NCBI GenBank assembly: GCA_000091205.1
Contig: AP006489.2
Length of the DNA: 64,000 nt
From: Cyanidioschyzon merolae
Taxonomy: Eukaryota
Reading direction: 5' to 3' (one strand)
Positions within the stretch are counted from its first letter, which is position 1. Every line of letters starts with the position of its first letter. Below are positions 5,585 to 54,225 of this stretch, piece after piece. The notes under the pieces were generated by a model. The model did no database searches and was not told the DNA's origin. It worked only from the letters and a program-made list of their open reading frames with translations. The translations under genes and the position numbers were made by a program.

Positions 5585-7294
5585 TCAGATGACGGCCGAT
5601 GAACGCCGTGCCTTTCGGATGAGAGCGTGAAGTCGATTCTTCACCGCATTCTCTGAACGCCCCTTGAGTTTCGAAGCGATGAAGGCCCACGCTGGCCCGC
5701 GTCGCTCATACTCGCGCAGGATGATGAGATCCTCACGGGCACTAAAGGGCTCGTGCCGAATACTCGGATCCAAATAGTTCCGATATCGTTCACGGCAGCG
5801 GGCGGCAGTACGTCCCGGCAAGCGTGACGCGATCTGCGTCCACGGTATTCGCAGGCCCGACACAGAGACCTGGACATTGCCGTAGGCGTTTCGTGTAGGG
5901 TCGTATTCGCTATCGGGCTGATCATGATCATCATCTTCATGGGGCCAGAGTCCACGAGGTTCCCTATCCCGCGTCATGTGCGCACCAGTTCGCAGCGTGG
6001 ACAGATGCGCTTCCACAAGCTGGCGCAGACGATTGTCCTCCTCGGGGGTCCAGTCACGTCGCTTGCGGTTATCTTTCTCGATGCCGTTATTCAAGGGAAT
6101 GGAATCAGCGAGATATTCTTGCAAGGACGTGTCTATCGTCTGCTCCGTGCCCGGACTCGGCTTTGTTTTGAGCTTTTTTGCCGTCCGGGGATGATCTTCT
6201 CCGAAAGAATCGGGTTCGCCGCCAGCACCCGCGACGTCTCTTTTTAGCGACAAGCTCCGAGTCGGCATCGACGACGATGCCGAGACGTCCGCGGACGATG
6301 TTCTGCGCCCATGGTCGCTGCCTCCACGAGAAGCGCGCAACGCTTCCCATCCGATCGAATGGAGGACCTGCTGAACAGCGCTCGCATGAGAGGCCTCCAG
6401 GAGATGCGCGCAGAAGATGCAAACATTAGGCTGTTGTGTATCTGTCGATAGATCATCGAAGCAGGCGGGGCCAGCGCGCGCTATGGAACTCGTTTCCGAC
6501 AACGGAGTGCTGCGGGCGCGACACCAAGGCGTCGTCGTCGTCGTCGTCGAAGATGCTGACGGGTCGCTGCCCACACAGAACGGGCTCATGGCATCCAGGC
6601 GAGTTTGCGTGTCGAGGTGCACGGGCTGAGGTGTCACCGGCGAGAGCGCTGCTGAATGCGCCGCGGCGTTCGCAGCACCGACGAGGTCGCCTCCATCGAG
6701 CGAAGTATTTAACGGTGCACGCTTCCAGTTTGGATACCCTACACCTTTGAGGTCGTCTACTAAAATCGATGAGCATACGGAGTGCGTCCCGTGGTCGCTC
6801 TCCGACATCGTATCCTGACTAAGGCTCTCGATCGTGCCGGAAAGCGCCTCGGCAGTAAACCTGTGCAACCAGGTTTTCCACCCTTCGGTAAGACTATCGC
6901 TTGCGTACGAGAAACTAGAGTGCTCGTGTGGCTCAGGTCCAAGAAGCGGCAGCCAGTCAACAGGGATACAAGATAACTCGCTGGTACTCTGCTCCCCGGT
7001 TTCCGCACAAGTTGCCATAGAGCATAAAACTTCTAGTAGCCGATGAAGATATTTGGGTATGCCACTTGGCACGCAACGTACCAGAGAAAAAAAGCACGAA
7101 AATATCGTTGTGCTTTCGACTTTGTACACAAAACACCAACACAATTTATCACCTCGAGCAACCGTCGTATGGCTTCGTGAACCCGTCTGCATCGTCAGCT
7201 GTCCCCCGTCGTGCGGTACGTACCGCAAGCGTCTTGTCCCCGAATTCGCGGGCGCATCGAGCGCGCATCGAGTGCGGCGCGAGATCGAATGCAT
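5585..7294 (-). CDS. R2R3-type Myb (SANT) DNA-binding transcription factor
   Basis: Two tandem Myb repeats near the C-terminus: WTPEEDNRLRQLV...WTQIASRLPGRTAARCRERYRNYLDP, and FSAREDLIILREYERRGPAWAFIASKLKGRSENAVKNRLHALIRK. Acidic/Ser-rich N-terminal region. True start uncertain: the first roughly 90 codons cross an AT-rich stretch, and an alternative ATG is at 7018. Confidence 0.7.
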   Translation of the reverse strand: MHSISRRTRCALDAPANSGTRRLRYVPHDGGQLTMQTGSRSHTTVARGDKLCWCFVYKVESTTIFSCFFSLVRCVPSGIPKYLHRLLEVLCSMATCAETGEQSTSELSCIPVDWLPLLGPEPHEHSSFSYASDSLTEGWKTWLHRFTAEALSGTIESLSQDTMSESDHGTHSVCSSILVDDLKGVGYPNWKRAPLNTSLDGGDLVGAANAAAHSAALSPVTPQPVHLDTQTRLDAMSPFCVGSDPSASSTTTTTTPWCRARSTPLSETSSIARAGPACFDDLSTDTQQPNVCIFCAHLLEASHASAVQQVLHSIGWEALRASRGGSDHGRRTSSADVSASSSMPTRSLSLKRDVAGAGGEPDSFGEDHPRTAKKLKTKPSPGTEQTIDTSLQEYLADSIPLNNGIEKDNRKRRDWTPEEDNRLRQLVEAHLSTLRTGAHMTRDREPRGLWPHEDDDHDQPDSEYDPTRNAYGNVQVSVSGLRIPWTQIASRLPGRTAARCRERYRNYLDPSIRHEPFSAREDLIILREYERRGPAWAFIASKLKGRSENAVKNRLHALIRKARRSSAVI

Positions 7295-7452
7295 CGCTGC
7301 GCCACGTCTGCCGATGAAAGACGCTCCCGTTGCAGCGCAAATTAGTCGATCCGCTGCCGAGTGGCGCCAGATCGCTGCGCCACGTCTGCCGATGAAAGAC
7401 GCTCCTGTTGCGGCGTAAATTAGTCGATCCGCTGCCGAGTGGCGCCAGATCG
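7293..7452. repeat. 78-bp direct tandem duplication (2 copies plus partial third) with 11-bp inverted repeat / hairpin
   Basis: Unit atcgctgcgccacgtctgccgatgaaagacgctcc(c/t)gttgc(a/g)gcg(c/t)aaattagtcgatccgctgccgagtggcgccag occurs at 7293-7370 and 7371-7448. attagtcgatc (7419-7429) is the reverse complement of gatcgactaat (7448-7458). Confidence 0.9.
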
Positions 7453-9560: not shown

Positions 9561-10269
9561 GCGATGGACGCACTAGAAAGCGGACGGAACCTGACAGACC
9601 TTGCGCACAAGTCACACTTGTGTAAACAACCAACGTTCATGTGCGAGGAAGCATCTGGAGTATGTCACACGCGTCGTTACGCGCGTGCCGCTGTCGTCGG
9701 TGCCAGCGGGCCGGCGCATGCCTTGCTGCACCCGCCGCAGATGCGATACGCGTGTCTAATGATGACAGAACACGGAGCTGCTGCTTGCTCGGTACCTGCA
9801 CGTGGATTCTGTTTCAGAACTTGCTCTAGGCGGACATCATCGACATTTGGAGTGCAGCGATAAAGGCCTAGGGATTCAGACGTGGGTTAAGGGTTCTCGG
9901 TCTTCTGTTCGAGGTGGCTCGTTCGACGCCTCACCGCTGGAATGCTCTATCTGGTCAGCGACACGATGATTCGCTACGCTCTTGGACAGGAATGCATAAA
10001 CGATCCGATATATGGATCGAATGGATACGTATAAGCACCGATACCTCTACGCTGCCCACGAGTAGCATGCGTGAATCATGCATGCTTCAATGTTGCGATC
10101 TGTTTGCATGCGACTCATGGGCGCTGCAATATGCGGCGCTGGATCGACACGCAAACAACACGAAGGCGTCCTTTCATGCTTTGTTCTCAAAACTGCGGCC
10201 AAAAAGTTCATTGTACGTGTCGCGTCGAATGAGCAGTTGGTTTCGAAAGACAGATCCCCTTCTCTTTGC

Positions 10270-10760
10270 GGTCATCGACGAACGACGTTCCGCGGTAGCG
10301 CGACACATTTCACGGAATATGCTCGCAGAGGTTCCCGCTGCTTCTTTTTGCGTGCGAATGTGTCTTGCACTCGAACTTGAATCACTGCAACGATTGCTTC
10401 CAGTGGAGCATGCGTCGTCGCTTTGCGCGCGAACGGCGTCCAGACGGATCGAGGTGTCCCGACATGTTCTCCAATCTGGATTTTCATTCCGGTGCTTGTT
10501 TCGTAAATAACGACATTGCGTTCCGTAAATGCCCTGTCGAATCGAACAGCAGGCTCTGATGTGCGCAGCGGATAAAGCGTTCGCTCATGGGATCGTCCAG
10601 AAGACGCCCGTGATCGTACGATATGGAATGGGTCGCGAACCCAGAGCAGGATATCCCGGGAAGCCTCATGTACCCGCCAAGGGCATATCCCGAGCGATGG
10701 ACCGAGCGTACACGAGAAACAGAGCAACCCCCGGAAGAGGATGCATGGTGGACACACCTG
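10270..10760 (-). repeat. Dispersed repeat R1 copy (a), encoding a decayed TnpB/Fanzor-like N-terminal fragment
   Basis: ORF 10272..10757 (-) contains YETSTGMKIQIGEHVGTPRSVW (compare ISDra2 TnpB [25 protein letters not shown]). The DNA is homologous, in inverted orientation, to 21180-21440, 28180-28450 and 59560-59770. A conserved core ccagtggagcatg / catgctccactgg is shared. Confidence 0.6.
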
Positions 10761-11676
10761 GGGACGCCTGACCGCAGTTCAGTGTCACCGCTTCGATAAT
10801 CTCCGCATATACCTTCGGTGCGACCTTCGCAGCGGTGCCCAAAATGTAGATCGCGTCTTTTGGCTGTGCATCAAGTTCAGCGACAACAGCCGAAAGCGGA
10901 AAAATCTGCACCTTATAGACGCTATCCATGCGCTTCGACCCATGACAACGAAGGTGAAGCGCACGGAGAGAATTTCGTGCAGTGAACCAGAAAGAACTGA
11001 TGGGAAAAGGAAGCAGTTGAAGAAGAAGTCTGCAAGAGCCGGAGTTGATAACCATAGGAACACAACAAAACCTGAGTACGTACATCCGAGCATGGCAAGT
11101 GGACCCATTTGCTTTTACACGTTCATATACGCATGTGTAGGCAGCTTGACGAAAGCGTCCCATGCTGGTGCCAACGCGGAAGCGCCCCGCGTGTGCGAGT
11201 TCCCGTTGATACTCAGCGCCCTTCAGGGTGCAGTCAGGAGCCCGGTGCACGCATGTCTGCGCAGACCCGTCAAATCCCAACCGACGAGACGTCATACACG
11301 AACTCCGAATGAAGTGCGCGTCCAACCGATGCGCTTCAAGGCACAGGAACGCGATTCCGTGTCCGAGCGGTGATCGTTGGTGTGTCGCATCGGGCGTCGC
11401 CGGCTGAGCTGGGCATTCGGAGAATCCATAGCCCTGGATCCAGCCTGCATTACCGTTGGTAGGACTGGCATGAGGCTGACGAAACGTTTTCATAGCTCGA
11501 GAGGAGCCATGGCGCTCGATTTCCCGGCTGAAGGCAGCAGCGCAGGCGCCCTCGCGAAATGGGCGCTCTCCATGCCGCGGGCGTCTGCCGCTCGACAACG
11601 AGATTCCTGGTAGACGAAACATGATATGTATCATATGCGACAATCATGAATCTTTCAGTCACCTGCGGACAGAGGC

Positions 11677-13922: not shown

Positions 13923-16718
13923 TCAGACGGACTCTCCGCGCCGATGCCGCGAAGCATTCGCCGTCGAGTCCTCGGTCAGATGTTGCGCTTGCAGTCGAGC
14001 CTCGAGCCTTGAGAGCTCGCGCTTCTCCAAGAGGTCCCTGATCACTGCAGCGAGCTCAAAATCCAACTGTGCAGCAGCTTCATGCATGTGCGTACGAAGC
14101 TGCTCATCGTCCAAGGCGCCAAGACCCGCCGGTAACCTGCCCCCGAGGCCCATTTTCGAACTGGTCTTCTCTCGTTTCAGATAGGGTTCATGCTTCGCAA
14201 GAATCGAACGCGGCTCCATTCCATATTTCGCGTTGTAGGCTGCTTGTATAGCTCGCCGTCTTTCGGTTTCTGAGATCGCTCGCTGCATCGAGTCCGTCAG
14301 CGTATCCGCGTAGAGCGTCACGGTGCCGGCTACGTGGCGCGCCGCACGCCCCATTGTCTGAATGAGTGCGGTCTCGCTTCGGAGGAATCCTTCCTTGTCC
14401 GCGTCGAGAATGGCCACCAGACTGACCTGAGGGAGGTCAAGGCCTTCCCGAAGAAGGTTCACGCCGACGATCACGTCACAGCTTTCTGTGCCAAGGGCTG
14501 AGAGCACCTCTACCCGCTCCAGAGCGTTCAGTTCGGAATGCAAGTAGCTGACCCTGAAGCGCTGTTCGCGGAGGTAACGGCAGAGTTCTTCAGCCATTCT
14601 CTTCGTTAGGGTGGTAATCAGGGCTTTCTCTCCTCGCTGTACTCTTTGGCGAAGCGAAGCGGCTAGGTGTTCGATCTGGCCCCGGGTAGGGTGCACCTGA
14701 ATCCGCGGATCAAGCACATGCGTCGGGCGAATCAACAACTCCGCCAGGGCACCGTCGGCGAGACACAGTTCGAATGGGCCCGGTGTAGCTGAAACAAACA
14801 CGCAGCGATGGACCTTGGTCCAGAACTCTGACTCACGAAGCGGTCGATTCTCCAGAGCGCTCGGTAGACGAAAACCGTAACGTACCAGGTTTTCCTTGCG
14901 TGCGCGATCTCCATGGTACATACCCCGTATCTGCGGAACCATAACATGGCTCTCATCGATGATGAGTAACCATTCGGGGGGAAAGTAGTCCAGTAGGCAC
15001 TCGGGTGGTACATCTGGTGCCCTGCCCGAGAGGTGCATGGCATAGTTCTCGATTCCCGAACAGTAGCCGTGTTCGCGCAACAGCTCAAGGTCCTGGGTCG
15101 TGCGTCGCTCCAGACGCTCGGCCGCGTGGTGCTGCCCTCGCTCGCGGAGCCGTTTGCAGCGGCTTTGTAGTTCAGCGGCGATAGCCTGGAGCGCCCGCTC
15201 GCGCTCCTCCTTGGGCGTCACGAAGTGCCGAGCGGGATACAAGGTCACATGGGAGCTGTATTCCACATCCGCTCCCGTTTCGCGATCCACATACCTGAGT
15301 TCGACAATTTGATGATCCTGTACATCGATGCGGAGTAATAGCTCCCGCTCATCCCACGACGGTAGCGAAACCTCCACCGCCGTATCCCTGATCCGAAACG
15401 TACCCGGATCGCGGGGATCGGCTCTGCGTTCGTAGAGCATGGCCTCCAGTTGTAAAACGATCTCGTCGAGACTGCAGACATCACCGAGTTTAAGGCTTGT
15501 CGCTGCTCGAAGGTACGTTGACGGCATGCCGAGGCCGTAGATGCACGATACTGACGAGACGATGATCACATCGGGGCGCTCGAACAGGGCGCGCGTGGCA
15601 GCATGGCGATAACGATCAATGTCCTTATTGATGCTTGCCGACTTTTCGATGTACGTGTCTGTGGCACTGTTGTAGGCCTCTGGCAGGTAAAAATCATAAT
15701 AGCTCACGAAAAACTCGACTGCATTCGATGGGAAGAATCCCCTCAGCTCACGATACAGTTGTGCTGCGAGCGTCTTGTTCGGTGCGAGTACCAGGGTTGG
15801 TCGTCCGTATTGCGCGATCACATTTGCGATAACGAAGGTTTTGCCAGTGCCCGTAGCGCCTTTAAGGACCTGGAATCGTTTCGAGGGCAAACGATCTACG
15901 AGGCACTGAATGGCTGCAGGTTGATCAGCGGCAGGTGTGTAGGGCGCGACCAGCTGGAAACGCTGATCAGGCAGTCGCGCAAAATGCTCTGCCAGTGTCT
16001 CCTGCTCTGCGCTTCTGCGAGGCGATATCGAAACGTCTGCGGGTATCGGTAGAATTTTGGTCAATGGAACAATTTGATCTGCGTCGTCGGAATAGCGGAA
16101 GATGTGCCAGCCGTGCTGTTCGAGGTGTTGTTGAGCGTCCGCGTCCAGTCGCCCGCGTCGAAGCAGCAGCGCCAGTTGTGTACAGAGTCGCCACATCACT
16201 GCATGCCGTGCAACAAGTCGCTCTGCGTCGGGTCTTTTCAGTGGCAGCTTGCGTTCTATGACAATGACCGCCATACTATCGTCCAAGTACAGTTTCATTG
16301 ATCGGGAGAAGCGAGCGTTTTTGGTGATCGCGTGCTCCGCACTCCCATTGCACACCTCTTGTACGAAGCGAACAAGTCGCTCAAATGGAGGCCGCTGCTC
16401 GGTCGCCACACGCGGATCCAAGGGACGCCCGTGTGCAGTTGCTGCAAGCACCGCTCGGCTCGCATCGTTCGTTGCGTTGCAGACGAGCGTCAGCGAAGGC
16501 CAGCGCCCGGCGCCGTTGGCGAGCAAGCGCATCACGACTGGGCCGTGGAACACCCCACCACCGATCCGCAAACGACACAAACATCCCGCGTTCCTCGCTA
16601 AACCTGACCTGCATAATCCTAAATTCCCTATGAGGAACATACACGCAAGCGCGTCAAAGCACAGACGAGAAGAGTTCAACACAGACACACACTCGACAGA
16701 GTTCACGCTGGTGCGCAA
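13923..16718 (-). CDS. uvrB: Full-length bacterial-type excinuclease ABC subunit B (UvrB) with a roughly 245-aa N-terminal extension
   Basis: Collinear with E. coli UvrB end to end. FQLVAPYTPAADQPAAI. Walker A GATGTGKTF. LVLAPNKTLAAQLY. FVSYYDFYLPEAY. IYGLG. HGYCSGIENY. IDESHVMVPQIRGMYHGDRARKENLVRYGFRLPSALENRPL. FVSATPGPFE. ILDADKEGFLRSETALIQTMGRAARH. C-terminal UVR domain LDFELAAVIRDLL. The N-terminal extension has a hydrophobic stretch ALACMFLIGNLGLC followed by an R/S/A-rich region. The exact start is uncertain. Confidence 0.9.
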   Translation of the reverse strand: MRTSVNSVECVSVLNSSRLCFDALACMFLIGNLGLCRSGLARNAGCLCRLRIGGGVFHGPVVMRLLANGAGRWPSLTLVCNATNDASRAVLAATAHGRPLDPRVATEQRPPFERLVRFVQEVCNGSAEHAITKNARFSRSMKLYLDDSMAVIVIERKLPLKRPDAERLVARHAVMWRLCTQLALLLRRGRLDADAQQHLEQHGWHIFRYSDDADQIVPLTKILPIPADVSISPRRSAEQETLAEHFARLPDQRFQLVAPYTPAADQPAAIQCLVDRLPSKRFQVLKGATGTGKTFVIANVIAQYGRPTLVLAPNKTLAAQLYRELRGFFPSNAVEFFVSYYDFYLPEAYNSATDTYIEKSASINKDIDRYRHAATRALFERPDVIIVSSVSCIYGLGMPSTYLRAATSLKLGDVCSLDEIVLQLEAMLYERRADPRDPGTFRIRDTAVEVSLPSWDERELLLRIDVQDHQIVELRYVDRETGADVEYSSHVTLYPARHFVTPKEERERALQAIAAELQSRCKRLRERGQHHAAERLERRTTQDLELLREHGYCSGIENYAMHLSGRAPDVPPECLLDYFPPEWLLIIDESHVMVPQIRGMYHGDRARKENLVRYGFRLPSALENRPLRESEFWTKVHRCVFVSATPGPFELCLADGALAELLIRPTHVLDPRIQVHPTRGQIEHLAASLRQRVQRGEKALITTLTKRMAEELCRYLREQRFRVSYLHSELNALERVEVLSALGTESCDVIVGVNLLREGLDLPQVSLVAILDADKEGFLRSETALIQTMGRAARHVAGTVTLYADTLTDSMQRAISETERRRAIQAAYNAKYGMEPRSILAKHEPYLKREKTSSKMGLGGRLPAGLGALDDEQLRTHMHEAAAQLDFELAAVIRDLLEKRELSRLEARLQAQHLTEDSTANASRHRRGESV

Positions 16719-18661
16719 CTGTCATGTCCGCCTGCCAACGGATTACAGGAGCGCGCTCCTTTGACGGGCGATTTGCTTTGCGTTTTCTCTCGGCGATCAA
16801 AAGTTTACTTTGACCATGCATCCCAGATTGCGGGATGCGTATTGGCTTTCGGAAAAGCGTCCTTAGGGCTGCGCAACACTACCAAGTTCCATGACGTAGA
16901 CTTGCATTCGGATGTACTGGACGTTTAGTACGTTCTATCGTGTGCCGAGTGCCTGCATTACTGCACCAGCCGTATCGCATATGCCTCTGTTACGGATCCA
17001 GCACGGAGACGGAACGGCTTTGCCATAGAACAGAGGGCGTCGGCTCGAGGTATGATTCATTCAACATGGAATCGGGATTCATTAGCCTGCTGGGAGCGTG
17101 CAAGCTGCGCAGACACACATGCTGCCTGCGACAGCGCGAAGCGACATACGAGGCGGATACCACGCCGACCAGGGCGATGCCCAGACGCAGCCTGTCCGCT
17201 GGCAGTCCCAGATTACACTGCGTTCCGGATGAGCTGCTGACATTTCCCTACAGGACTCGCCACTCGCGAGGGCATCGTGCACTAGCCCGATAGACTCGTC
17301 CGGCTCGCGGAACTTTCTGCCTAGAAAGAAGAGTTTCGAGGATACGGAAAGCGTTTCCCCCTCCTAGCGTTCTTCGTAGTGGGGGCGGGAAATCTTTATC
17401 TCGTTGCTGGTGAATCTTGAGTCTCTGTTCTTTGCCCTGAATAGCGCGCTCGATACGTGCGCCTTTATATTTGGCAGGAATTGAACATGTCCTGCTTCTC
17501 ATCGTTGAAGAGAAGCGCAATCCTGATCATTATCGTGTTGCAGCAAGGTGCAATGTGGATTTGCATGAAAGTCGTCGCAAAGTATAGTTGTGTATCTCAA
17601 TTGGGTTTCAATCTTTACATTTGTGGATTCAAGTGCTTTTTCGCTGTGTATAACAAAAACGTTCAAAGTGCGTTCTCTTTTGCAAAAGGAAAGAAAGGAA
17701 AGTTATGGAAGTAGAAGTGGAGGATCCTGCAGGCCTGGTGTCGGCGGCTGCCGCAGAGAACAAAAAACATTTCCGGCACCATAGGAACGGGAAAAGACGA
17801 AGAATCAACGGGAACGAGGGAGGGCGGACGTCAGACGCCGCACGAAAAACGACACTACGACGAGATGTTCGTGAAAGCTTTTCTTTCAAGCCGTATCGAG
17901 GATCCCTACAAGCAACCGTTGCAAGAGGTCATCAGAAACCCTGTCGAATCATATTCCAGGAGTGCTCAAATCTCCTGTTTAGGACTGATGCATATGACGA
18001 GGGAGATGTATCGCGGCGTGACGCGCATAGAAAGAGTCGAGGTTCCGGAGGAATTTTCTAACGAGACCTTCATCCGCCACTTGATGCTTGGCACGGGGGA
18101 AACCTCGAAGAGAAATGAGCGAGCGCATGACGTACAGGAAAATGACACCGAATTCCGCTTCAACGGTACTCGATACAAGTATGACGGGGACATTCACACC
18201 TACGGGGCGATCTAGTACCCCAGGATCCTGAGGAACCCCATGATCGTAAACTTCGACCGCATCATGATACGCTCCGTCTTTGCACTGTAACCGGGCCTCT
18301 CTCGCAAAGGGATATGGGCTATCGTCGATGGCATCACGAACGATAGTGACAATGAAGAGGAGACCGAATTCGCCGAAAAGAAGGCATCACCCGGGAGCAT
18401 GAATGAAGCTTCTGTGCTCCGTGCGGCTCTTCGAGAGCACCGTACGGGTTGGCGTTAGCCAATCCTGCAGCAAAGGTATCAGAGATGAAAAGAGATGCTA
18501 TCCCCTCATCCTGCGCTATTTCGTGTTCCTGAACCGAGAGCTCGAACGCAAGGCGGAGATGGAGCTGGATGTGGAAGCAAGTGAAAAGTCGGTGAAACGG
18601 AAGGCTGCGCTTCTGAAGAGGCGCTTCAACCTCGTTCTGGAATGCAAAAGCAAGTCGCGCT

Positions 18662-19887
18662 TTGTGGCTAGCGATTCCAGATTCCTTCGCTGCTCCAAGG
18701 AGATCTGTCCGAAATTCGATGTTCATAACAAGGAATTCACGGGAGAAAAACGGTGAGACTCATCGGAAGAATATCTTCGATTTCAAACGTCTCAAAACGA
18801 GCAAGAAAAAGGTATTCACGGTGACGATCGACAGCGATGGGGTATCCATATGTGTACATTATCGGCGGTTGAAGGCGGATCGTCCAATTGTGCCTTCGGC
18901 TTCGCCCGCGGCGAGGCACGAAGAAAACACGGAGGCGGGCCCTGGATCGTATAACCCCCAGAAGAACGACATCGTGGCAGGCGCAGACCCCGGGAACACG
19001 TATATCATAACCATCGCAGTGCCCAGGGGTGCGAAAGATGGTATTGCTGGCGGCTTGCGTCAGAAAGCCATGAGTCTTTTAAAGCACTCAAAAGCGAGAT
19101 ATTACCGAGAGTCTAGGATAATTCATGCGAGGAAAAAAGTGTGACGTAGAATGCAGCCGGGAAGGCGCACCTGGAGGCGATCAGCCAGGTGACGGGCCGC
19201 CGAGCGGACTCTGAAGCTTTTCAGGAATTCATGAAAACTCATGCTGCTCACTAGGAGGAGCTGTGGAGAGATTACGCAAAGCTCCGGTTGGCTCGTCAGC
19301 GTATGAATCTCTACTGTGGGAAGCAACATGCGTTCGCCAACTTTTTCAATGAGTTGAGCGCCCTGGAGGAGGACGAGAGTCAAACGCTCGTAGTAGCATA
19401 CGAAGCAGGGCGCTCGATGAATCAAAAACGGAGCATACCCGCTCCGTAAACCACAGCGTACAAGGAGTGTGCACAGTGTTTTGTCATAATACCGATAGAT
19501 GAGTTCCGAACGTCATATACGGACCATGAACGGGGGTATACACTTCACCGGGTCGAGATGGAAAAGTGCCAGAGGAGCCCTGTGAAGATATAGAAAAGTA
19601 AGGAGAGCTGACAGAAGAGCAAAATGGAATGGAGGGCGAAAGTTCCAGGGCTACTTGCACTGGTGAGTACAAGCGGTGGCAAGAAACGTATGGAGTTTAT
19701 GAATCTTGACTTTAACGCCGCTATCAATATCAGACGAAGTGCGATTCTGAAGACGGGACCTGCAGAGCTGACGAGAGCCAACTTTGTGGGGCAGCCAGTC
19801 AAAGTCGAGTTTTACAAGGAACAGCCGAAGCCGATATCACTCGAGCAGTCGAAAAAGGCTCGGAGGCGTCTACGCGTCGGTGTATAG
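18662..19887 (+). pseudogene. Decayed TnpB/Fanzor-like (IS605 OrfB-type RuvC nuclease) gene, copy b
   Basis: Ordered motifs in frame 1 and 2. RuvC-I-like [17 protein letters not shown] (about 18990). TS/zinc-finger motif KECAQCFVIIPIDEFRTSYTDHERG (about 19465-19540; compare TnpB VSPYFPSSQLCHDCG). RuvC-III NLDFNAAINIRRSAIL (about 19700-19745; compare ISDra2 DRDENAALNIRREAL). Spacing matches TnpB. Interrupted by at least three in-frame stops (about 19238, 19448, 19590) and a frameshift near 19145. Lies in an AT-richer island. Confidence 0.65.
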
Positions 19888-21179
19888 ACATATACGCTCT
19901 GGGTCTCACGGAAGCAAATGCAACGATGCGCTGTCCATTGGCGATACGCTGCACGCGTTTCAGGCAACGAAGGTCGCTGCTGTGAGTCACGGCAGCATCG
20001 ATGCCCACGAGAAAGGCAGTTCGATGCAACAACCTCACACCACACAGGATCGTTCTCTGCGGACAAGGCGAATCGTTCACACTGCTGCTCGGTGCCGGAT
20101 TGGCTTCAGATGCCGGCGATGATCTCTCCTCGTTCATCAGCGTCGACAGCAATCCGAGTCGCCCCGAGTCCGGGCACTGAATCGATGCAACTGTGGCGCA
20201 ACCATGTCAGATACTGTGTCGCGTTAGCCGTGAAGCCCGAACATGCAGTCATGTATGTGATGGTCTGCATCCAGTGACTGCAGCACTGCATCGGGGCGCT
20301 TTCGGGGCGTGCACAGGTGCCTCTGGGTCGATGATCCTGGCGAGCGGCGAGACGTCCGCGAGCATCCTCGCAGCGAAACAATGGTGATAGATGCGTCATC
20401 CTCGCATGGCTGCGTCCTCGCGAATAGCGTCGAGCGCGCTTGCCATGAGGCTTACCAGCATCGACCGAACAGACCAAAATCCCCAGAGGAAGGTACGGTC
20501 AAGGGCCCACGGGAAGCATTGGTGGTAGAATGCGGGCTGATGATTGATTCCCTCGATGCCGATACGCATCGCACGCGGAGGAACTCCATATCAAATGAAA
20601 CGATCCAAGTTTTCGTCACGTGAGCGAAAAGTGCAACAGGCTCGCATCGTCGGGCATACACGCTCAAGTTTGCGTCGCTTCCTGGTGTCATGAACAACAG
20701 CGTTCGTATGCGTTTTCTGAGATTGCTTCTTTTTCCTCTCTCATATTTCCGGCTTCAAACTACGTCGGTCTCTATTGTCCATCCAGGCTCTGTTGCCAGC
20801 AGTCGAATGACGTTCTTAGCCGCGGAAACGTTCCGATTTCGCTGCTTGCCGCTGTTGTCGACGCATTTCAAGTAACGGCGGTCGTTGCGATCCATGGTTC
20901 GATGGCCAGTTTCATCTTCTCTCTACACAGCCTCGGAGCGCCTTTTGTGGCGGCCAAACTTGGCAGTGATCAGGCGTTCTCGAATGTCCGCTAAACCTCC
21001 TGCTCCTCGTACGGGCGCCGCTCTGTGGCACGAGAATGCATGCTTCGCCTCTCAGCACATGCACTTGACGAACGCAGGAGGCTACCCTCGATGTCTGTCT
21101 CCGGTTTCCGCGCCCGACGGTATACACCGGGATCACAGGCTTCCTGTTGGCGAACTCCGCAAAGCGCTCTCTGTCCGTT

Positions 21180-21700
21180 GAACGCGCCTGCGAACACTGT
21201 TCCAATCGATGAAGGATGTGTGGAATGCGAAATTCTCCTAGATGAAACAACTACAGGAAAGAAAATCTTGGCTGTAGAACAAGTCGATAGATTTCGATCC
21301 GCTGACGTTTTTTAGGTAAAAAACGGTAACGCATGCTCCACTGGAAAGCATCGCTGCGGTGGTTCAAGTTCGAGTCCAGGACATTTTTCCGTGCAAACAC
21401 GAGAAACGGGAGCCTCCTTGAGCACACCCTTTGACAAGTACCATGATGCTGTCGATCGCCGCGTTCTCGATGGCTACTAAGAACCGAGGATTTGTGTTTC
21501 AAACGGAATCGCTTGTTTCAGGTGAGAATCTCAGTGAATTTTCGGTACGAGGGTACGACCTAGCCGTCAATGGATAACGTGGCGCTTTTTTCATCGTCAA
21601 TCTAGAGGCACAGAGCGCTGCGCCCTCGAGTTGCCTTTGTACAGAAAGTTCGAGAACTTGAAGCATGTGTGATTTGAGCATGCTACTCGAAATGACCGAA
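21180..21700 (+). repeat. Composite dispersed repeat R1-R2, copy c
   Basis: 21180-21440 is homologous to 10270-10560 in reverse complement. 21420-21700 is homologous to 28450-28720 in the same orientation. Shared blocks: cctttgacaag, gtgtttcaaacggaatcgct, aggtgagaatctcagtga, gaagcatgtgtgatttgagc. Confidence 0.75.
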
Positions 21701-22845
21701 AAAAATCGAGGCTTGACAGTTTAAACTGGATCGTAATACTGGTCAATTTACGAACCTGTGTGCGACAGCGCCGCGAATCCTATTCATGCTGATGTCATAA
21801 CGAATTCCAGCAGAAGAAGCGTTGAACGGGTCACGCAGAGAACAAGATCATAAATCCTAAAACAACATATGGATCTGCACGCCCCTATTGCTGCACCACG
21901 AACATGGAGGCTGTCTATGTAAAAAATTTGGAAGAAAATCAAACAGCAGGAGCAGAGCGAACACTTCCGAGTTCCCTTTTCATCTGACAAATGGGTAAAC
22001 GAGGAAACAAATGCGGTTCCGCGACGGGCGCACCAATCGATCCTGACCCTGCGACGTACACCGCCGCGAGATACGTTTTGTTTTCCGGTGCACGATCGAT
22101 GATCCTGACTCTAAGAATCCCTCTGAAACCGCAGTTGCTGTCGGCAGTTCGGGAAACGACCGCTGTATCCCTCCAGGCCCTTGTCCATTTCACTGACGCT
22201 GGGACGGTCTATCCGTCAGAGATACGCTCTAGAGGGATCGAGTGAGCCGCCAGATGCCGAGCTTGCATAGGCGCTCGCAACAACGCAGCATTCGCCAACT
22301 CTCTGCATGCTCATCTGGGGATAGGATCGCTCTGCGGTGCCTGCATACCGGCATCGGGTCAAGCAGCATAATACGGTGCTTGCACTTGTCCATGACAATC
22401 ATTCAGCGTGCTCATCGATTCTACGCGATCGATGTTTTGGAAAGAGCGCTCGTTTTCATTCTGGTTTCTGATGCGCACAACCGGAGCCTTTGATCGACCT
22501 GGAAACAGTAGATCCTCGACAGCGTGGATCTGCGACAAAACGTCTCCTGGGCAATACTCGCGTTTTACCGTTGCTTGTGTCGCGTTATACCTGAATGCTG
22601 CCGTGCGCCAGCGTTCATGCGTCGGGACATTGCGGCGCTGGAGACCGCATTCTGTACAGCATCAGTTCGATGAATCGAACGACATGTTCCCAGATGCACG
22701 AGTGCTGGCGCGTACCCGGCACCAGGGCGCCATCTCAACGCAGGCGAATGCTCCGGATCCCGAACGAGAGCGAAGACATATCAGAGTCCGTCCAGTTTTG
22801 CGTTGCATCACGCAGCACGTCGGCAGCATATCCTCGAGTACATCC

Positions 22846-23545
22846 AAGTCGGCGTTATTCTGGCATGTCTTATTCAGACGAACCCGGATGCACCTCTCGC
22901 CTGGTGACTTTGCTTACGATACTAGCGGATACAAGTCGGCGTTATTCTGGTATGTCTTATTCAGACGAACCCGGATGCACCTCTCGCCTGGTGTCTTTGC
23001 TCACGATACTAGCGGATACAAGTCGGCGTTATTCTGGTATGTCTTATTCAGACGAACCCGGATGCACCTCTCGCCTGGTGACTTTGCTTACGATACTAGC
23101 GGATACAAGTCGGCGTTATTCTGGCATGTCTTATTCAGACGAACCCGGATGCACCTCTCGCCTGGTGACTTTGCTCACGATACTAGCGGATACAAGTCGG
23201 CGTTATTCTGGTATGTCTTATTCAGACGAACCCGGATGCACCTCTCGCCTGGTGACTTTGCTCACGATACTAGCGGATACAAGTCGGCGTTATTCTGGTA
23301 TGTCTTATTCAGACGAACCCGGATGCACCTCTCGCCTGGTGACTTTGCTCACGATACTAGCGGATACAAGTCGGCGTTATTCTGGTATGTCTTATTCAGA
23401 CGAACCCGGATGCACCTCTCGCCTGGTGACTTTGCTCACGATACTAGCGGATACAAGTCGGCGTTATTCTGGTATGTCTTATTCAGACGAACCCGGATGC
23501 ACCTCTCGCCTGGTGACTTTGCTCACGAGACTAGCGGATACCGCC
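22846..23545. repeat. 87-bp tandem minisatellite, about 8 near-identical units
   Basis: Unit actagcggatacaagtcggcgttattctgg(t/c)atgtcttattcagacgaacccggatgcacctctcgcctggtg(a/t)ctttgct(c/t)acgat repeats with period 87 (for example 22921 to 23008). Units differ by only 1-3 substitutions. The array is open in two frames, which is why ORFs 22408..23646 and 22595..23881 appear. Confidence 0.95.
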
Positions 23546-24248
23546 GTGCAGCACGCCTCCGGGTCGCCACACATGATATGCCCGTTAGAACAGGGCTCTC
23601 TGGCCGGGAAACACAGACTTGTTTCGGCGCTGCGACTGCTGCTTGAAGGTGCTCCCCCGTGGCCCAAACGAACTTCCTGTGGCAGTCCCATACCACGCAT
23701 CGCGCCTTGCTACCGGGTGTCAGGTCCAGCACCGCTCTCAGGGCCTCCGCTTACCTCACGACGCTCTTCTCGAACTGGTTTCGAGCTGCATGCACGCTGT
23801 TTTCCGAAACGCTTTTCTAACGAGTTCCGCAGGCGCCGTGTGTCCCGCTGCGTGTTCGCATGCGACTGTCACCAGAAGTAGCGCCCGCGTTCGAAAAAGG
23901 ACAAAAGACTTTCGTTCGCCTGGTTGCCTATCGCCGCAAAAGCGATATCACACATATCCGTCTACACCATGCGCTGTATATACTTGTTCGTCGCGTTCAT
24001 CTCCGGTTTCAGTGCTACGAACACTGGTTGAAAAGGCGGTAAGCGCTAGCCGCAGCTGGCGTCAAGCGCGTGGGTTGGGGTCGGCGCGCCTTCGCCCCAG
24101 GCTCCATCGACACCGTTTGCGGAGGCGACGACGCTTTGGAGCGCTGGACGTGACGGGTATCGTTTCTGTTATCTTTCGTAACGCCACGCTGGAAGCGAGT
24201 AAATAGTGTTGTTCTGGGGGAGTGCTGTGGAACTTGCCGGTGGTTCAC

Positions 24249-27391: not shown

Positions 27392-28179
27392 GGTCCATGC
27401 TTTTCAAACGGCGCTCTTGCTGCGTCTTGAACCGCCGTTCTGCGGCCTGATGTAAGCGCTTCGTAGTCCAAGGGGACGTGCAGGATACGCAACTGCGTCG
27501 ACCTAACGACGTCGCGTTGGGTGAAGGTCCCCGTAGCTGCGTAGCTGTGGCCGGCTATGCGCGGCCAGGCGAAGCGCAAGTCCTTCCCTAGGAGGCCAGC
27601 AGTTTGATCAACTTGTATCGCCTGTACCGTACGATACGCTAATGAAACCGGTTAACTTTGCGAACTCGGGTGTGCATGCTATAGTTTGAGTCTCTTGCGA
27701 CTGTCAAAAATACCAGCCTTTGCGGAGCGGTTTTCGCGACTGTTTCCTTTTCCTCTCTCTTATCTCCGGATTTCCATACGATGGTCTCTCGTTTCACCCC
27801 AGCTCTGATGTCAGCTGTCGAAGGAAGCGGATGGCAGTGCTCAAATCTCGATCTCACTGATTTCGGCGGTTTTCGACGACTCCTATGCCCGGGCATAAGT
27901 TGCCCGTGATGCTTCCCGTGCCATTTTCATCTGCTTGGTTTACAGACCGGGTGCGCATGTCAGAGCGATGACAAGCCCTATGGTGGTCAAGTGTTCCCGT
28001 GTGTCCACCGAGCCTCCGTCTTCTAAATTCGCTCTGTGACTCGTACAGGCTTGCTTCATCGCTCGGCATGTGTCCAGGTGAGGTGTATCGGACGCTCATC
28101 TGGATACCCGACTCCGTCTCCGCCTCCATCTTCGCAAACCGAGGCACTCTCCTACGATCACGCGCTTCTTCTGAGCGAT

Positions 28180-28720
28180 CCTCTAGGCGAGTTTCCTGCC
28201 CGCTGCACGAGCCAGTCTGCGCTGCCTCATTTGATATACGACTTGTGGACCGTGATGGTGTACGTGACGAAACAAGTACCGAAAAGAATATCCAAGTTGG
28301 AGACCAAGTCGCGAAATTCGGATCCGTCTACCCACTTGCCATGCAAACCAGTGACGCATTTTCCAGAGGAAGGGATCGCTGCGAAGCCTGCAGTCCCAGC
28401 TCGAGACACTTGACGATGCAAACACATGAGACGGGAGCTTCTTGGAACACATCCTTTGACAAGGTTCCAGCTGGTTCCGCATCGGGGTTTCATCGGTGGC
28501 TGCAAAGAATGGAGCACTGGTGTTTCAAACGGAATCGCTCATTTGAGGTGAGAATCTCAGTGAGGGTTCGGTATGGGTTTTTTTCGGAGGACCGGTCAAG
28601 GACTGACGTCGCATCGTTTCCTTTTCTCTATGAATCTATCAGCGCGGAGCGGAACGTCCACGAGTTACCGTGAATGAGAAAACACCAAAGACTCGAAGCA
28701 TGTGTGATTTGAGCGTGCCT
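28180..28720 (+). repeat. Composite dispersed repeat R1-R2, copy d (TnpB-like N-terminal fragment + R2)
   Basis: ORF 27999..28673 carries ETSTEKNIQVGDQVAKFGSVYPLA, homologous to copy a ETSTGMKIQIGEHVGTPRSVWTPFA. 28450-28720 matches 21420-21700. The R1-R2 junction cctttgacaag is conserved in both composite copies. Confidence 0.75.
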
Positions 28721-29288
28721 CACACACGAGAAGCGGACGATTATGGTATGTAACGAGTCATTGTTCGAGGACGTCCGGAATCATGTTTATTTCGCTGATA
28801 TCATGAACGCCGGGGACAACGCGTCCATAGAGCGATTCCGACAAGCCGAGCGAGATTCCCAAAAGCACCAAAGAATCCGTAGGGCTTTATTCCAGCACTT
28901 TGAATAACAAGGCTGTGCATCGAAACAATTTTCGAAAAGCGTTGTATACGAGAAACAGTGCGACTAGTTCAGCCTTCTAGTTTCATCGAAGACGAATGCG
29001 TCGTAAGCACTGATGCTGGACAGCATTGCTGCCGCTGCAGCACTCTTTGTCTACGTATCGTCCACTGAATAATCAGTTCGTGTGCAGACGGAGTGCTCAG
29101 GCCGCTCAGTGTCGCAGCCTAAGTTGCTCCGTTTGCGTTTCATCGTAAACTGGTTCGCAGACCGCTAGAGCCGCACCTGCTATCGGGTTTTGTTGGGCTG
29201 GCAACCAGAGCTTCGCGAAAGCCACGCACTAGGGTTGCTGCGTTTTGGCGAAGCGTTACGCAGCCTGGTGCAGCGACCAGTGCAACGT

Positions 29289-32305: not shown

Positions 32306-35300
32306 CGCACCGCCACCTATAGCCGCAGGTCGGAGTCACTACCACAAAGCACCCTCTGTGCTTTTTCCTTTCAGTTAAGGTCCCCTAGTCGTCAAACGCT
32401 CGGCTGTCAGTGCCCAAAGCCGAAATGCAGGACGCAAGCGGGGATGTCCGCAACAGCACCAGCACCGACTGCGGTGTCAGCTGCCTGCCTACAGTGTTGC
32501 CCGCGGGATGTGCACTTTCGTACTGTGCTCACGTTGTGTATGCTGCGCAGTGACGGCGTTGGATGCAACAGAGAAAAGTGCAACTGAGCAAACATGTTCC
32601 AGGAATTTTTTCTTGGAATCAGAACTAGCGTACTTGTCGCAGTGATCGACAGGCTCGCTGTTATCCACAGTGGTGGACGGTAGCGCGAACTGCCTCTGCG
32701 GATGGATATCGCACGGAACGAGAAGCGCTGCTTGCATGCACGTACGCTTTCCTAGGACCCGAACTCAGAGATGGTACTTGCGACGCATGGTAAGCTCTGG
32801 ATATGGAAGGCAGTGCCCGCCAAACCTAACTAGCTGCTTCACCAGACGACGATCAAATTCTATATTGCGAGTGCTTGGCATCCGGATTCATCCCGAAACA
32901 ACTCGATACCCAAAGCACAGAGATTGCTTCAACAAGTGATCCAGATGCGAGCGCTCATGCTCCAGTGCGGGAGCAGCAAGTACAGCTACAACGTCTTGCC
33001 ACGCGTCGAAGACGAGCCACTTGCCCTAAATGCCGAGAGCGATGCGCAGGTAGGTATCTGCCCTGACGTATGTGTGTGCAGCGTCCATGAAGACAGCGCT
33101 GTGCGTTGCGCGGCTGGAGTGTCTCTCGGAGACGTGCTTTTGATCACATACGTAGAATCAGGACTGTAGGCGTCATACACAAAGCACTGAAATGTGGAAT
33201 ACATGTATCATCATGATCTTTTTGACTTTGTTCGTCGTTGTCTCGCGGAGGTATTGGACAAAGGGAATGAATCCTGTCGATAGGGGGAAACGCCGCGGAA
33301 AGAATTCATGCTGGGGCTGCTCGCTTGCGAAAAACTGGTTCACTCGCCCAAGTCAGTCATTCTGGCATTCAGCACGTACTTGAAGCGAGCTTCTCGTGGC
33401 GCTGATGCCGAACCTCTTGCACCCAAAACGGAACCTGTCGTTCTCTATTTAGACAAATGTCTGACTGGTTGTCCATACATTCCCGTCCGTTATTCCTTTG
33501 TGAAAACCTCTCAAAGAAGCCACAGGACGCGACTTTTTCCTACTAAGGATACGAAAAGTGACGAAGAGGCACTGATGGACATAGGGAGAAAACGTGCTTC
33601 TACGGGACTCCGTCACGCGTTGAACAGCACACGAACACTGTTGTACTGAAACGCAAACGCTTCCCACACAATGGACGAGTGTTCGTCGCCCTGGACGTTA
33701 CGCGATTCGAGAAAAACGCTCGACCTGTATACGGTACTCAAAGAGGTTTAGAACGCTGTCCGTACAGAAGATGCGAGCGAGCATGACAACAATAAAAGTC
33801 CTAGCGGCTCTTCAAAGGTGCAATCGCCTACATATCACCAGGCGGAGAGGATCAATCGACATCTCATTGTTCGTTGACGCGTGCTTCGTGGCTTCTCCTT
33901 CCTCGGTGCTGCTGTCCTACTCTCGGACAAGGTCGCCGTCCATCAAGTAAAAGCGGTCATGCGGCACCCGACATACGTTGGCGTTGAGCTGATCTTCGTA
34001 CCAGCTTCTGCGTTCTGGTGCAATCCAGTCGAAAACATCTTGTCTAGTGCGAAGCGCCGGTTTTCGCGCCCACGGATCAATAGATTGGTCAGTTGCACCC
34101 GCGACGCTGAAAGCTGCAGGACGCCACTGAGGATCGCGTAGCTTTCTAGTCGAGGAAGGCTCGCCTAGCACTCATCGCCTCGACGCACCTCGTCAAGCAA
34201 ATGTGCGTAAGTTTCTCGGACACACGGCATCGAGCTGTCCTTTTTCCACTCGAATTTTCTGATGAAATTTCCCTGCGACAGTACAACGGATATTCGTTAG
34301 AAAGCACGCAACTCGATCTGATGTAATGATCAGAGGTTTGGAGGCACACTTCCCAGCATACCTTCAGACGTGGACGCGTCACGTTGTCAATTGAGGTAAA
34401 CGATACAGCACAGGTGTGAAAAATTATTGAACAAGACTCAAAAAGCAAATCCATTTGCAGGTCAATGTCGAGCGATTCATGAGGTCTGTCTCGTGAGCGT
34501 TGTACGCTCAACTCGCTGGTCCAAGAAACTGAAGACTACTTCAAGCGGATTTCACGCTTCAGAGAGTATATGAGTACCCAAACTTAGCATGCGGACAATC
34601 TTATGGACGCTTGCATAGCATTGCGCTGGGGTCGCCATTTGTTTCGGTTCGCGATGAGTGCAAAAAACTTGCATTCGCCAAGTTCCTCCATGGTTTCATA
34701 AAGGAAATAGCTGCTCAGTCGAGTTGATTTGCGGTTGCCTAGTGCGTATCACGTGGCGCAGCGCGCCACGGTCACGTTCCTGCTCCTTCGACGAGTCCAG
34801 CAAGCGACCCTGCATGATTCCCGTTGATGCGCTCCGAGCGACACAGACGCATCACGAGCACGGGCGGACATGGAATCTGGAATAGAACAAGCGTTTGAAA
34901 CAGCGCCGAATACACGAAATTGCAAACAATACGCTGAGCAAACCTCCGAAAGCAAGGCAATTGCATCCGTGACCCTCGCGTTGGTGGAACTCCGCCAACA
35001 ACAGTGCACGACAGCACGTTCTGCACGACGACCTGAACACCCCGGTCAGTATCCGAAAAACAACTTCACGTTTCCGGAACGTCCATTGGCTCTGTATTGA
35101 GCAAACGTTTCTAGTGATCAGGATGAACACAGAGTAGGCATCGTGCTGAAACACTGAACACTTTCAAAAAACAGTTAGTGTCTAGATGATAGGGCAATGG
35201 AATCCAGGAAAACTGTAGCGCCCTATACACGCACACTGGAAACAATGCCCCTGAACAATCACCCTTGTGCTCCATTATGGGATATCAAAGCGATCATTGC

Positions 35301-47660: not shown

Positions 47661-49741
47661 AGGGTGAATGCGTACCCATTCGGAGACGCCTTCCAGCCGT
47701 GTTCGACCGGCCGCCTGCTATCGGTTTCCGTTTTTCCAGGCACACCTCGAGCTTGAGAGGCTACCTCACAAAGTTAGATCACTTGAGCTCCTCGGGTATC
47801 GTCTTCGGCACCACACATTGTCTGATATTCGTAGCAGCGTAAAGTCTCGTTTCACGAACTCTATGGGTTTCTCGTTGCTGGTGGAACTCATCCGCGAAAG
47901 GATAGCTAAAATGCGTGCCGCTACAGCCTAGTTATCGTGTCGTCGGGCAAACACCTTGTCTCACTTGTCTCCCCTTTTACTTTTGCTGCCTCATCACTTG
48001 CTCTTCTTCGCTTGATGGTTAGTGAGATGCGGATTTATTTCGCTTGTTTCCGACGACCGGGGATGACTGTCCTCCGGGATCCTTGAATCTCACGCCCATA
48101 CCCTTTGCTTGGATTTTTTATTTCTTAGAAATGAACGCATTTCTGTATGCCCCTGTGTGAGGGCGTTCCCAGATGCACGATAGCTCGCACAAGAAAGACG
48201 ACATGTGCCCTGGGTTGTTAGCGTGCAGAACGCTCAAGCGATTCGCCCAGTGGAGCGATTATTAATTTCACAATAGAAAACATTTCTTATACGTGGTTGA
48301 AACATGCAGCGTACGGAGGATAGAGAAGCAGCTCTACTCCTGGGACAGATTCGACACAAGCTCGAACGCTAGGGGAATGGTGAAATACCACGCTCTCCAA
48401 CAGAAGGACGTTGCCAGATGTCAGGGAAAAGTCTTGTGTAATTCGAGCAAGTGGCTGATGCAGTTGTTCAGGCCTTCTCTACGAGCGAAACTGAGCCGCC
48501 AAATGAATCCACCGCAGCTAGAACAGATGGTGTCGTCGTCGTCCAGTTGGATCGCACATAAAACGGGCTCCATCTCCGAGAAAAAACATTCACGCTCCGA
48601 CCATTTCGTCCGAAGGAACTATGATCGAATGAAAAAACAAACCGACATCCCTGTGCTTCATAGCGATCGCGAAGTTCCAGGTACGCTGTTGATGCGTTTT
48701 TGGTAAACAATGGCCGTACATGAACTAAGACTTTTTTTCGACTGTATCCCAGTGTTTTTCGGGACCAAACGAACTAGATGTTGCGAAACAGAGACGCCCA
48801 TGATGGCTGCTGCGATCGTTGCTTTTGCTTTCCGTAAGGTAGTCAGCAGGTCGTTTTCCTACCCTTGACCGCAAGAAGTCTTGAATAATATCGGTATTCG
48901 GCGCAAAGCGCATCTGCTTGTTTCTTGCAGGGTTCGCCAACCACCTGAGTACTGTGGTATGACTGACACTGAGGATTCATGCGGCGCTCCTTATACAGTT
49001 CAGTAAAGAATCTATCCTACAGGGAATTCGTCCAGGAGGTATAGAGCGCATTGCATCCTGCCCTCGATCACCTGCTATCCACCGCAGCACAAGTGAAGCA
49101 AAACTGAGTTGTGAGACCTGAACAAGGTCGATCACCTGCAGCGGATTTCGTTCGTCCGACGCCTCTAAGATCGCATTGGTACGGGGACATGAACTTCGCG
49201 GCCATTGCTCGCCTGCGAACGGTATGATGCGTAGACCAAGTTCGTGTTCCAAGTCATGGTGATGGTCACGGTGATGCGTATCACAGAACGACCAGAAAGG
49301 GCCGGTGCGGCAGCCGCCGCCGCCGCCGACGACGACATCCGTCGGGAGACCCCTTCATGGCGTCAGTAGGTCTAGGCGGGACGACTCACGAGCGGAGCGA
49401 ATCCTAATAACTGGCTTTGCCTTGTTCGTAAAACGTGCGGGCATGAAATCTCGTATCTGAGGTTTTAATGAGCACGCCCCTGATTCTATGAAGGAAAAGC
49501 GGAACCGAATCGCGAGACTGAGCATCGCGGTCTGCCGCCGAGAGCATGCGACCGAGACAGCTTTCGTCCTGTAGACACTAGGCATCCACGTACACCGGAA
49601 AACAAACACGACTCCATTGGATGCAGTAACCAGTGCCTCGTTCACAGAAGCGTTTCGCGGTGCGCATCCATGCTATGCCGGCGTCGACGCTGAACGCGCA
49701 GCCTCCGTGCGCACTCCAACGTCGATAGCCATTTGCGTCGG

Positions 49742-53992: not shown

Positions 53993-54110
53993 TCGCGCAC
54001 GCACGCATACGCACGCACGCATACGCACGCACGCATACGCACGCACGCATACGCACGCACGCATACGCACGCACGCATACGCACGCACGCATACGCACGC
54101 ACGCATACGC
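53993..54110. repeat. 14-bp microsatellite (gcatacgcacgcac)n, about 8.5 units
   Basis: Read directly. It translates as [14 protein letters not shown] in the upstream-extended DXR ORF, so that part is not coding. Confidence 0.9.
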
Positions 54111-54225
54111 GCTGTTGCAGAATACCGTACACTGTTCAGCGCTGCGCTGCTGCACCGAGGCCGGCTACCAGCACACTCTTCTCGTGCATGGTAAGCGTTG
54201 TTTTAATATTGAATTGAACCAATAT

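Follow-up and report, generated by a model that had tools for sequence, protein, structure and literature searches.

The subject here is one repeat in a 64,000-nucleotide (nt) stretch of Cyanidioschyzon merolae DNA (contig AP006489.2 of assembly GCA_000091205.1), which we call the window throughout. An earlier note, made from the letters of the window, had described at 28180-28720 two adjoining blocks, R1 (28180-28450) and R2 (28450-28720), read on the plus strand. We interpret the repeats, with a probability of roughly 0.78, as the decayed remains of a non-autonomous Mariner-plus-Fanzor1 element of the IS630/Tc1-mariner superfamily that had suffered an internal deletion. The whole repeat unit is ~1.37 kb long and has sharp ends, and its coding sense is opposite to the strand on which it had been read.

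Extent of the repeat unit

A sensitive self-comparison of the window matched 28266-28718 to 21241-21683 with 67.8% identity over 454 nt (E=1.7e-34). R1 and R2 are thus shared by the sites at 28 kb and 21 kb, as the earlier note had it, although the real unit is the one of ~1.37 kb. The same comparison matched 28151-28380 to 59463-59691 (67.5%, E=9e-13) and 28267-28382 to the inverted stretch 10504-10387 (71%, E=1.6e-9). R1 therefore does recur near 59 kb and, inverted, near 10 kb, but not alone as had been proposed: both copies are full length, include R2 and are simply more diverged. Upstream of R1, 27666-27825 matched 20650-20810 (70.6%, E=1e-11). The conserved blocks and peptides quoted in the note are found in the sequence.

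A degenerate motif pattern made from the best-conserved blocks hits four sites in the 64 kb, which are the four copies (0.00 in shuffles). In a four-way and then an eight-copy alignment the four window copies are collinear over ~1.35 kb, and mean identity rises from a background of ~0.2 to ~0.5-0.7 and falls back to background at positions common to all copies. The unit thus extends past R1 by ~550 nt on the left and past R2 by ~260 nt on the right. Its length is well conserved among copies and indels are few. The copies in the window are as follows.

20617-21990, minus strand: copy A, whole element, from alignments (left end ± ~25 nt, insertion)
27633-28998, minus strand: copy B, whole element, containing R1 and R2; limits from family-wide identity and mapping through a ten-copy alignment
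58961-60336, minus strand: copy C, whole element, from alignments
9744-11127, plus strand: copy D, whole element, inverted relative to A-C, from alignments

Two coding remnants recovered by the consensus

The extant copies look non-coding. In pairwise tblastx comparisons no frame was favoured, scores being similar in all frames of both strands; substitutions among the copies show no three-base periodicity; no open reading frame (ORF) is common to the copies; and Pfam returned no match for the raw ORFs overlapping the repeat. These tests first suggested a non-coding repeat, a view that was overturned by a majority-rule consensus, in the making of which no protein family was consulted and which was later improved with ten copies. 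The consensus is 1,368 nt long. On the strand opposite to that of the earlier note, the consensus restores two long open frames. As it grew from seven to 9-10 copies, its score against the Pfam profile DDE_3 rose from 34.6 to 38.5 bits and that against PF07282 from 19.6 to 26.9 bits; matches that become stronger with more copies are the behaviour expected of a true ancestral coding sequence. The case shows how a consensus can bring back, from very old copies, homologies that none of them retains by itself.

In frame 0, the first ~235 codons of the consensus read 'MYSLDIQSAAIRAYGFIRSFRILGRLFGVAPSTLCRW...FFVAIDETAFD...GYAPRGSR...IIAAIASSGACVTAL...SVDGSKFLDLFSNLDFPSGTCFIMDNIAFHK'. They match the NCBIfam profile of IS630 transposases (NF033545) at E=7.9e-17 with 61.6 bits over profile positions 20-238 of 299, DDE_3 (PF13358) at E=1.3e-9 with 38.5 bits against a curated cut-off of 28.6, and HTH_Tnp_Tc3_2 (PF01498) at E=7e-5, under its cut-off. 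The transposase motifs 'GVxxSTLxRW', 'IDET', 'GYAPRG' and 'MDN..HK' are present. From these matches we predict that the first ~80% of an IS630/Tc1-mariner transposase gene is retained, comprising the helix-turn-helix (HTH) region, which binds DNA, and the DDE core as far as the second catalytic Asp. The catalytic triad is incomplete: the alignment ends at position 238 of 299 of the IS630 profile and 113 of 146 of DDE_3, and the region of the third catalytic residue is replaced by a Fanzor-derived part. An incomplete DD(E/D) triad excludes autonomy and is expected of a deletion derivative; the earlier note's description of the unit as non-autonomous is borne out.

What had been read on the plus strand is the antisense of this transposase. 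R1 had been taken for the WED/REC N-terminal region of a TnpB-like protein, but at E<=1 in Pfam the 224-amino acid plus-strand ORF at 27999-28673 has no TnpB-related match, and it is the opposite strand of the same bases that matches the IS630/Tc1-type DDE transposase core. The peptide ETST(E/G)K.IQVG..V....SVY.PLA is the antisense of 'SVDGSKFLDLFSNLDF.SGTCF' in that core, and K(A/T)THAPLEAI is the antisense of 'IAAIASSGACVTAL'; the ETST..IQVG frame carries stops in copies E, F1 and F2, which lie outside the window and are described below. The string cctttgacaag, where R1 and R2 were proposed to join, is no structural junction; it corresponds in antisense to L-(V/T)-(K/G)-G, a conserved transposase motif that stands before 'APRG'. 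R2, thought to be a non-coding, terminal or structured tail, is the antisense of the HTH region, its conserved blocks corresponding to 'SLKFSRQIIDSVRNT' and 'MLKSHMLQVF'. It is not terminal, and it has no conserved RNA structure, its alifold energy being -0.47 against -0.70 ± 0.87 for column-shuffled alignments (z=+0.26).

In frame 2, the last ~165 codons of the consensus read '...QKKPVIVGYGNGRGNGGGHRGEPSVPVKGM...LVDIREHLTTVKCHRCE...RNFCLCMKC...NRDLNAAINVLRLL...', with the motifs GYGNG, E-H-L-T-T-x-K-C-H-R-C, a second Cys pair and N-R-D-L-N-A-A-I-N-V-L (RuvC-III). They match Pfam PF07282 (Cas12f1-like_TNB, formerly OrfB_Zn_ribbon) at E=5.6e-6 with 26.9 bits against a cut-off of 26.3. The pattern [TS][TS]-x-x-C4 zinc finger-x(5,50)-RD, given as a TnpB/Fanzor motif by Bao & Jurka (2013, PMC3627910), is present as 'LTTVKCHRC...CLCMKC...NRDLNAAINVL'. 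The consensus C-terminus matches an intact ORF of 610 amino acids, P0003, at E=1.7e-35 and 42% identity, the aligned P0003 sequence being 'QKRPVIIGYGTGRGNGGGHKGEPAVPVKAM...EHLTTKKCHRCE...DRDFRVCEHC...RNRDLNAAINILKLL'. An exhaustive HMMER search returned 152 relatives of P0003, many of them of 680-880 amino acids with the matched stretch at the C-terminus; ten of the long relatives were tested, and PF07282 was the sole match of each, with four scores reaching or exceeding the cut-off. In BLASTP, the consensus C-terminus matched a published Fanzor1 protein (Additional file 3 of Bao & Jurka) at E=2e-6 and C. merolae CMe-1 at E=1.3e-4, with 23% identity and collinear with residues 539-681 of 734. 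P0002, a real ORF of a decayed copy, matches PF07282 at E=2.4e-3.

By these comparisons the Fanzor piece is predicted to be the last quarter to third (~27%) of a Fanzor1 protein, with the zinc ribbon and RuvC-III. The RuvC-I Asp and the WED/REC N-terminal half are absent. Since the similarity to P0003 and CMe-1 begins only at about CMe-1 residue 539 of 734 and the part upstream of it is transposase-derived, the piece is a Fanzor fragment and not a Fanzor gene. The relation to Fanzor/TnpB that the earlier note had proposed stands insofar as a C-terminal-third piece is present, but this piece (27681-28197 in copy B) lies outside the blocks reported and is not N-terminal.

P0003 itself occupies L027 6001-7833 (also L028-L031) and comes from another eukaryote; it is identical on 17 contigs and adjoins Rpb2. 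Among 1.84 billion representatives, only its residues ~356-564, which correspond to the C-terminal third of Fanzor1, have homologues, the N-terminal 355 amino acids being an orphan sequence, partly of low complexity. A 222-amino acid ORF lies 38 nt upstream of it.

Junction and ends

The DDE_3 match in frame 0 ends a few codons from the point where the similarity to P0003 starts in frame 2 ('..SVLAEGIAQKK..'), so the two parts abut, out of frame. All ten aligned copies (10/10) are collinear across this junction; their common ancestor therefore already had the chimera, which moved as a whole. The consensus ends carry an imperfect inverted repeat of ~22 nt, C(R)TGT..G...AAAATGGAACA, with an 11/11 core within ~16/22 matches at equal distance from both ends, and its score was reached by 0.2% of 2000 shuffles. 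A terminal inverted repeat (TIR) is present in the consensus, although it is weak. Mapped onto copy B, the layout is as follows.

28978-28998, minus strand: left TIR (5' end in gene sense), approximate, from the consensus ends
28235-28920, minus strand: predicted IS630/Tc1-mariner-type transposase remnant, from consensus profile matches
~28503-28920, minus strand: predicted HTH region of the transposase remnant
~28235-28503, minus strand: predicted DDE core with the first two catalytic Asp
28197-28235, minus strand: junction of the transposase-derived and Fanzor-derived parts, which are out of frame in the consensus
27681-28197, minus strand: predicted Fanzor1/TnpB-like C-terminal-third remnant, from the consensus PF07282 match and P0003
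27633-27663, minus strand: right TIR (3' end in gene sense), approximate

Dispersal and decay

The motif-pattern census consisted of one scan of a metagenome collection with a pattern built on the window copies. It returned 20 loci, ten of which are the window's own copies, and it located copies E, F1, F2 and G on other contigs, where the flanks are unrelated. A ninth copy, H, came from a profile search, which picked up its edge at L021 13028-13175, ~655-800 nt to the left of window position 1; H is the fifth local copy. Protein searches added the full-length copies I (L025) and J (L026) on other public contigs, together with eight more ORF fragments that correspond to none of A-J. At least 13 additional copies lie on other public contigs beyond the four window copies and H, and copies occur on at least four other contigs of the same organism as well as on other public metagenome contigs.

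In global alignments, pairwise identity is 53-60% for all copy pairs with the exception of F1/F2. The copies are roughly equidistant, within the window and across sources alike, which argues for a dispersed old family and against a local segmental duplication. The family is dispersed and very old, with a star-like history, and in this the earlier note's view of it as a mobile-element family is upheld. F1 (L007 3641-4773) and F2 (L019 2903-4036) share an internal 1,134 nt that are 95% identical, while the outer ~100-140 nt at each end diverge at the level of the family; this pattern looks like gene conversion between two old copies, not recent transposition.

No copy is functional. Stops and/or frameshifts number 2-11 per copy and affect both halves. 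Copy A has 11 stops and 5 frameshifting indels; in copy B, the transposase part has 5 stops and 3 frameshifting indels, and the Fanzor part 3 stops and 4 frameshifts. Across copies, the Fanzor part carries 0-6 stops and 1-4 frameshifting indels each and nowhere retains an intact ORF.

A solo long terminal repeat (LTR), or an LTR pair formed by copies A and B at a distance of 7 kb, was also considered and ruled out; the pair was rejected because A and B resemble each other no more than they resemble any other copy and because the host genes UBC and KIN17 lie between them. Three independent short metagenome contigs that bear KIN17 (L001, L002 and L003) all end inside copy B, at 27758-27996, which suggests that the repeat family probably breaks short-read assemblies.

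Origin of the element and competing explanations

The history that we favour would begin with an internal deletion in a two-gene element (TIR, transposase, Fanzor1, TIR), with one breakpoint in the late part of the transposase gene and the other in the late part of the Fanzor gene. The product would have kept both ends and consisted of a TIR, the N-terminal ~80% of the transposase, the C-terminal ~27% of the Fanzor protein and a TIR, ~1.37 kb in all. A full-length relative would then have mobilised this product in trans in a single burst, presumably by cut-and-paste, as we infer from what is known of the superfamily, and all copies would have decayed neutrally afterwards.

Several observations weigh against this history. 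The databases searched yielded no full-length parent sharing the ends of the unit, and a search of 5.8 billion proteins returned no intact transposase relative at E<=0.001, only short ORFs from dead copies. No individual copy or real ORF matches DDE_3 or IS630, so that the transposase call rests on the consensus, whose IS630 score of 61.6 bits is below the NCBI equivalog cut-off of 100. The PF07282 score of the consensus is just above its cut-off and marginal on its own. Profile searches with the transposase and Fanzor halves against PDB sequences gave no match, at low power. Taken singly, no copy has a significant inverted repeat, and the flanks of the ten copies show no consistent TA; a TA duplication is not readable because the ends are too decayed to be placed to the base. 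Finally, five of the nine copies known in the organism fall within ~62 kb, a clustering that random dispersal does not predict and that may reflect local hopping or ascertainment bias.

The chimera could have arisen by another route, for example if a Fanzor fragment had been captured by, or nested in, a truncated mariner-type element that then spread. We consider this unlikely. It would fit the failure to find a two-gene parent, and the P0003 locus does have a Fanzor-type part with no transposase part nearby. However, the order and orientation of the two parts (transposase 5', Fanzor 3', on one strand, between the two ends of one element) are exactly those expected after a single deletion in a PUl-1-type element, and capture requires more events.

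A further scenario accepts the deletion and adds that its product was favoured because it kept the stretch of the Fanzor guide RNA, that is, the 3' end of the ORF with the right end, and so exploited both enzymes in trans. Fanzor guide RNAs overlap the right end/TIR and the 3' region of the ORF (PMC10530073), and in the unit these two regions are kept in all copies. Against this, the last 120-300 nt in gene sense show no conserved structure, with z from -1.4 to +0.7 relative to column-shuffled alignments, a comparison of low power at ~58% identity, and Rfam returned nothing there. A selective role for the guide RNA is in our view a doubtful addition.

It is still less probable that the ancestor encoded an in-frame fusion protein, with an IS630-type HTH and partial DDE domain joined to the RuvC-II, zinc ribbon and RuvC-III of a Fanzor; if it did, this would be a natural fusion of a transposase and an RNA-guided nuclease. 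Two real ORFs, P0001 and P0002, run from the transposase part into the Fanzor part, reading through the junction, and consensus frame 2 is open over ~345 codons. Yet the homologous parts lie in different consensus frames, and P0001 and P0002 switch frame at different places, which points to independent indels. Such a protein would have neither the third DDE residue nor RuvC-I, and the databases searched contain no intact protein that combines the two parts.

That the repeats are functional non-coding RNA genes or regulatory modules filling intergenic regions is very hard to sustain, even though copies B and D sit between divergently oriented genes and length is conserved with few indels: Rfam and tRNA scans of the whole window returned nothing, neither strand of the rest of the unit shows conserved structure any more than R2 does, the divergence is star-like and near saturation, and the consensus restores two unrelated protein-coding homologies. 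The model of the earlier note, in which the plus strand of R1 is a TnpB/Fanzor N-terminal fragment beside the left end of the transposon and R2 a non-coding tail, both derived from the Fanzor of the window, has as little left to it, for although the ETST..IQVG.. peptide is readable in the four window copies and copy A has a Fanzor pseudogene 0.7 kb upstream, the model is refuted for strand, domain and parent element.

Comparison with known elements

The closest parallels in design are the Mariner elements PUl-1, PUl-2 and PGv-1. According to Bao & Jurka (2013, PMC3627910), these are 3.4-3.8 kb long, with TIRs of 24-33 bp and TA duplications, and carry a Mariner-type transposase 5' and Fanzor1 3' on the same strand; Fanzor1c has likewise been associated with Mariner/Tc1 (Jiang et al. 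2023, PMC10530073). The unit has the same gene order and orientation and a TIR of ~22 nt, but it measures 1.37 kb, is devoid of the transposase C-terminus and of ~70% of the Fanzor, and all its copies are dead. It shows no significant similarity to the N-terminus of the PUl-1 transposase and therefore represents a different lineage. To the IS630/Tc1-mariner transposases it is linked by profile matches and motifs, whereas it differs from them in being truncated before the third catalytic residue and recognisable in the consensus only.

Internally deleted, non-autonomous DNA transposons are a familiar class, exemplified by Ds, which derives from Ac, and by deleted mariner and P elements. The unit resembles them in that the ends are kept and the interior is lost, in a transposase that would act in trans and in one deletion junction shared by all copies. 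It differs in that the deletion would span two genes and leave an out-of-frame transposase/Fanzor chimera. No living autonomous partner of the unit is known.

In C. merolae itself, the only family named in the passages and supplementary tables of Bao & Jurka (2013, PMC3627910) that were searched is CMe-1A, with its short derivative TE-N2_CMe. Both are described there as having neither TIRs nor a transposase, with ~150 and ~70 copies, and TE-N2_CMe as a short derivative that shares one end of a Fanzor element. They are like the unit in being old, diverged, Fanzor-related repeat families, apparently of the same algal lineage, and unlike it in that the unit has a transposase remnant and TIRs. The unit is apparently a new family of a known kind, so far undescribed.

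The window contains a nearly full-length, frameshifted Fanzor1 pseudogene of the CMe-1A type at 17705-19878 on the plus strand, which aligns with the published CMe-1 protein in six collinear tblastn pieces at 60-67% amino acid identity. Three shorter remnants of this type lie at 47683-47838 (minus), 56334-57068 (minus) and 34660-34920. Sequences of this kind point to a Cyanidioschyzon-like red alga as their host. The unit had been thought to derive from the neighbouring Fanzor, a derivation that we reject: neither blastn nor tblastx matched the unit to the CMe-1-type copy in the region at 16.8-20.6 kb, and BLASTP gave E=0.12. With the CMe-1 protein the unit shares only the generic Fanzor1 C-terminus. 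The CMe-1-type Fanzor of the window belongs to a Fanzor1 lineage different from that of the unit. Beside the unclassified CMe-1A, the family of the unit thus indicates that Cyanidioschyzon-like red algae had another, second Fanzor1 lineage, one that was linked to a transposase of the Tc1-mariner/IS630 type.

The unit is ordinary transposon debris, and the family raises no long-standing question. It has some value for the annotation of Cyanidiophyceae and for the natural history of Fanzor carriers. For annotation, what matters is that units of ~1.37 kb fill intergenic regions of a compact red-algal genome and carry spurious ORFs on both strands.

Other features of the window

The window has ~55% GC and long, intron-poor genes, among them KIN17, a UBC E2 gene, FMO, a histone deacetylase, the A49 subunit gene of RNA polymerase I and DXR with an N-terminal extension. 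Its DNA is also found on JGI metagenome contigs at ~99.3% identity.

Three tandem repeats were seen. Between copy A and the UBC gene, 22755-23663 holds an 87-bp repeat of ~10 units that are 97-98% identical in the middle of the array. At 53968-54135, a 14-bp repeat, (CGCACGCACGCATA)n, of ~9 units lies in the 5' part of a long ORF, the C-terminal two-thirds of which is DXP reductoisomerase. A 78-bp tandem duplication at 7293-7448, 96% identical, overlaps the start of a Myb-domain ORF at 5585-7294 on the minus strand. Finally, a 931-amino acid ORF at 13923-16718, on the minus strand, resembles by eye a bacterial-type UvrB excinuclease subunit with a long N-terminal extension; its context is eukaryotic, and its product may be organelle-targeted.

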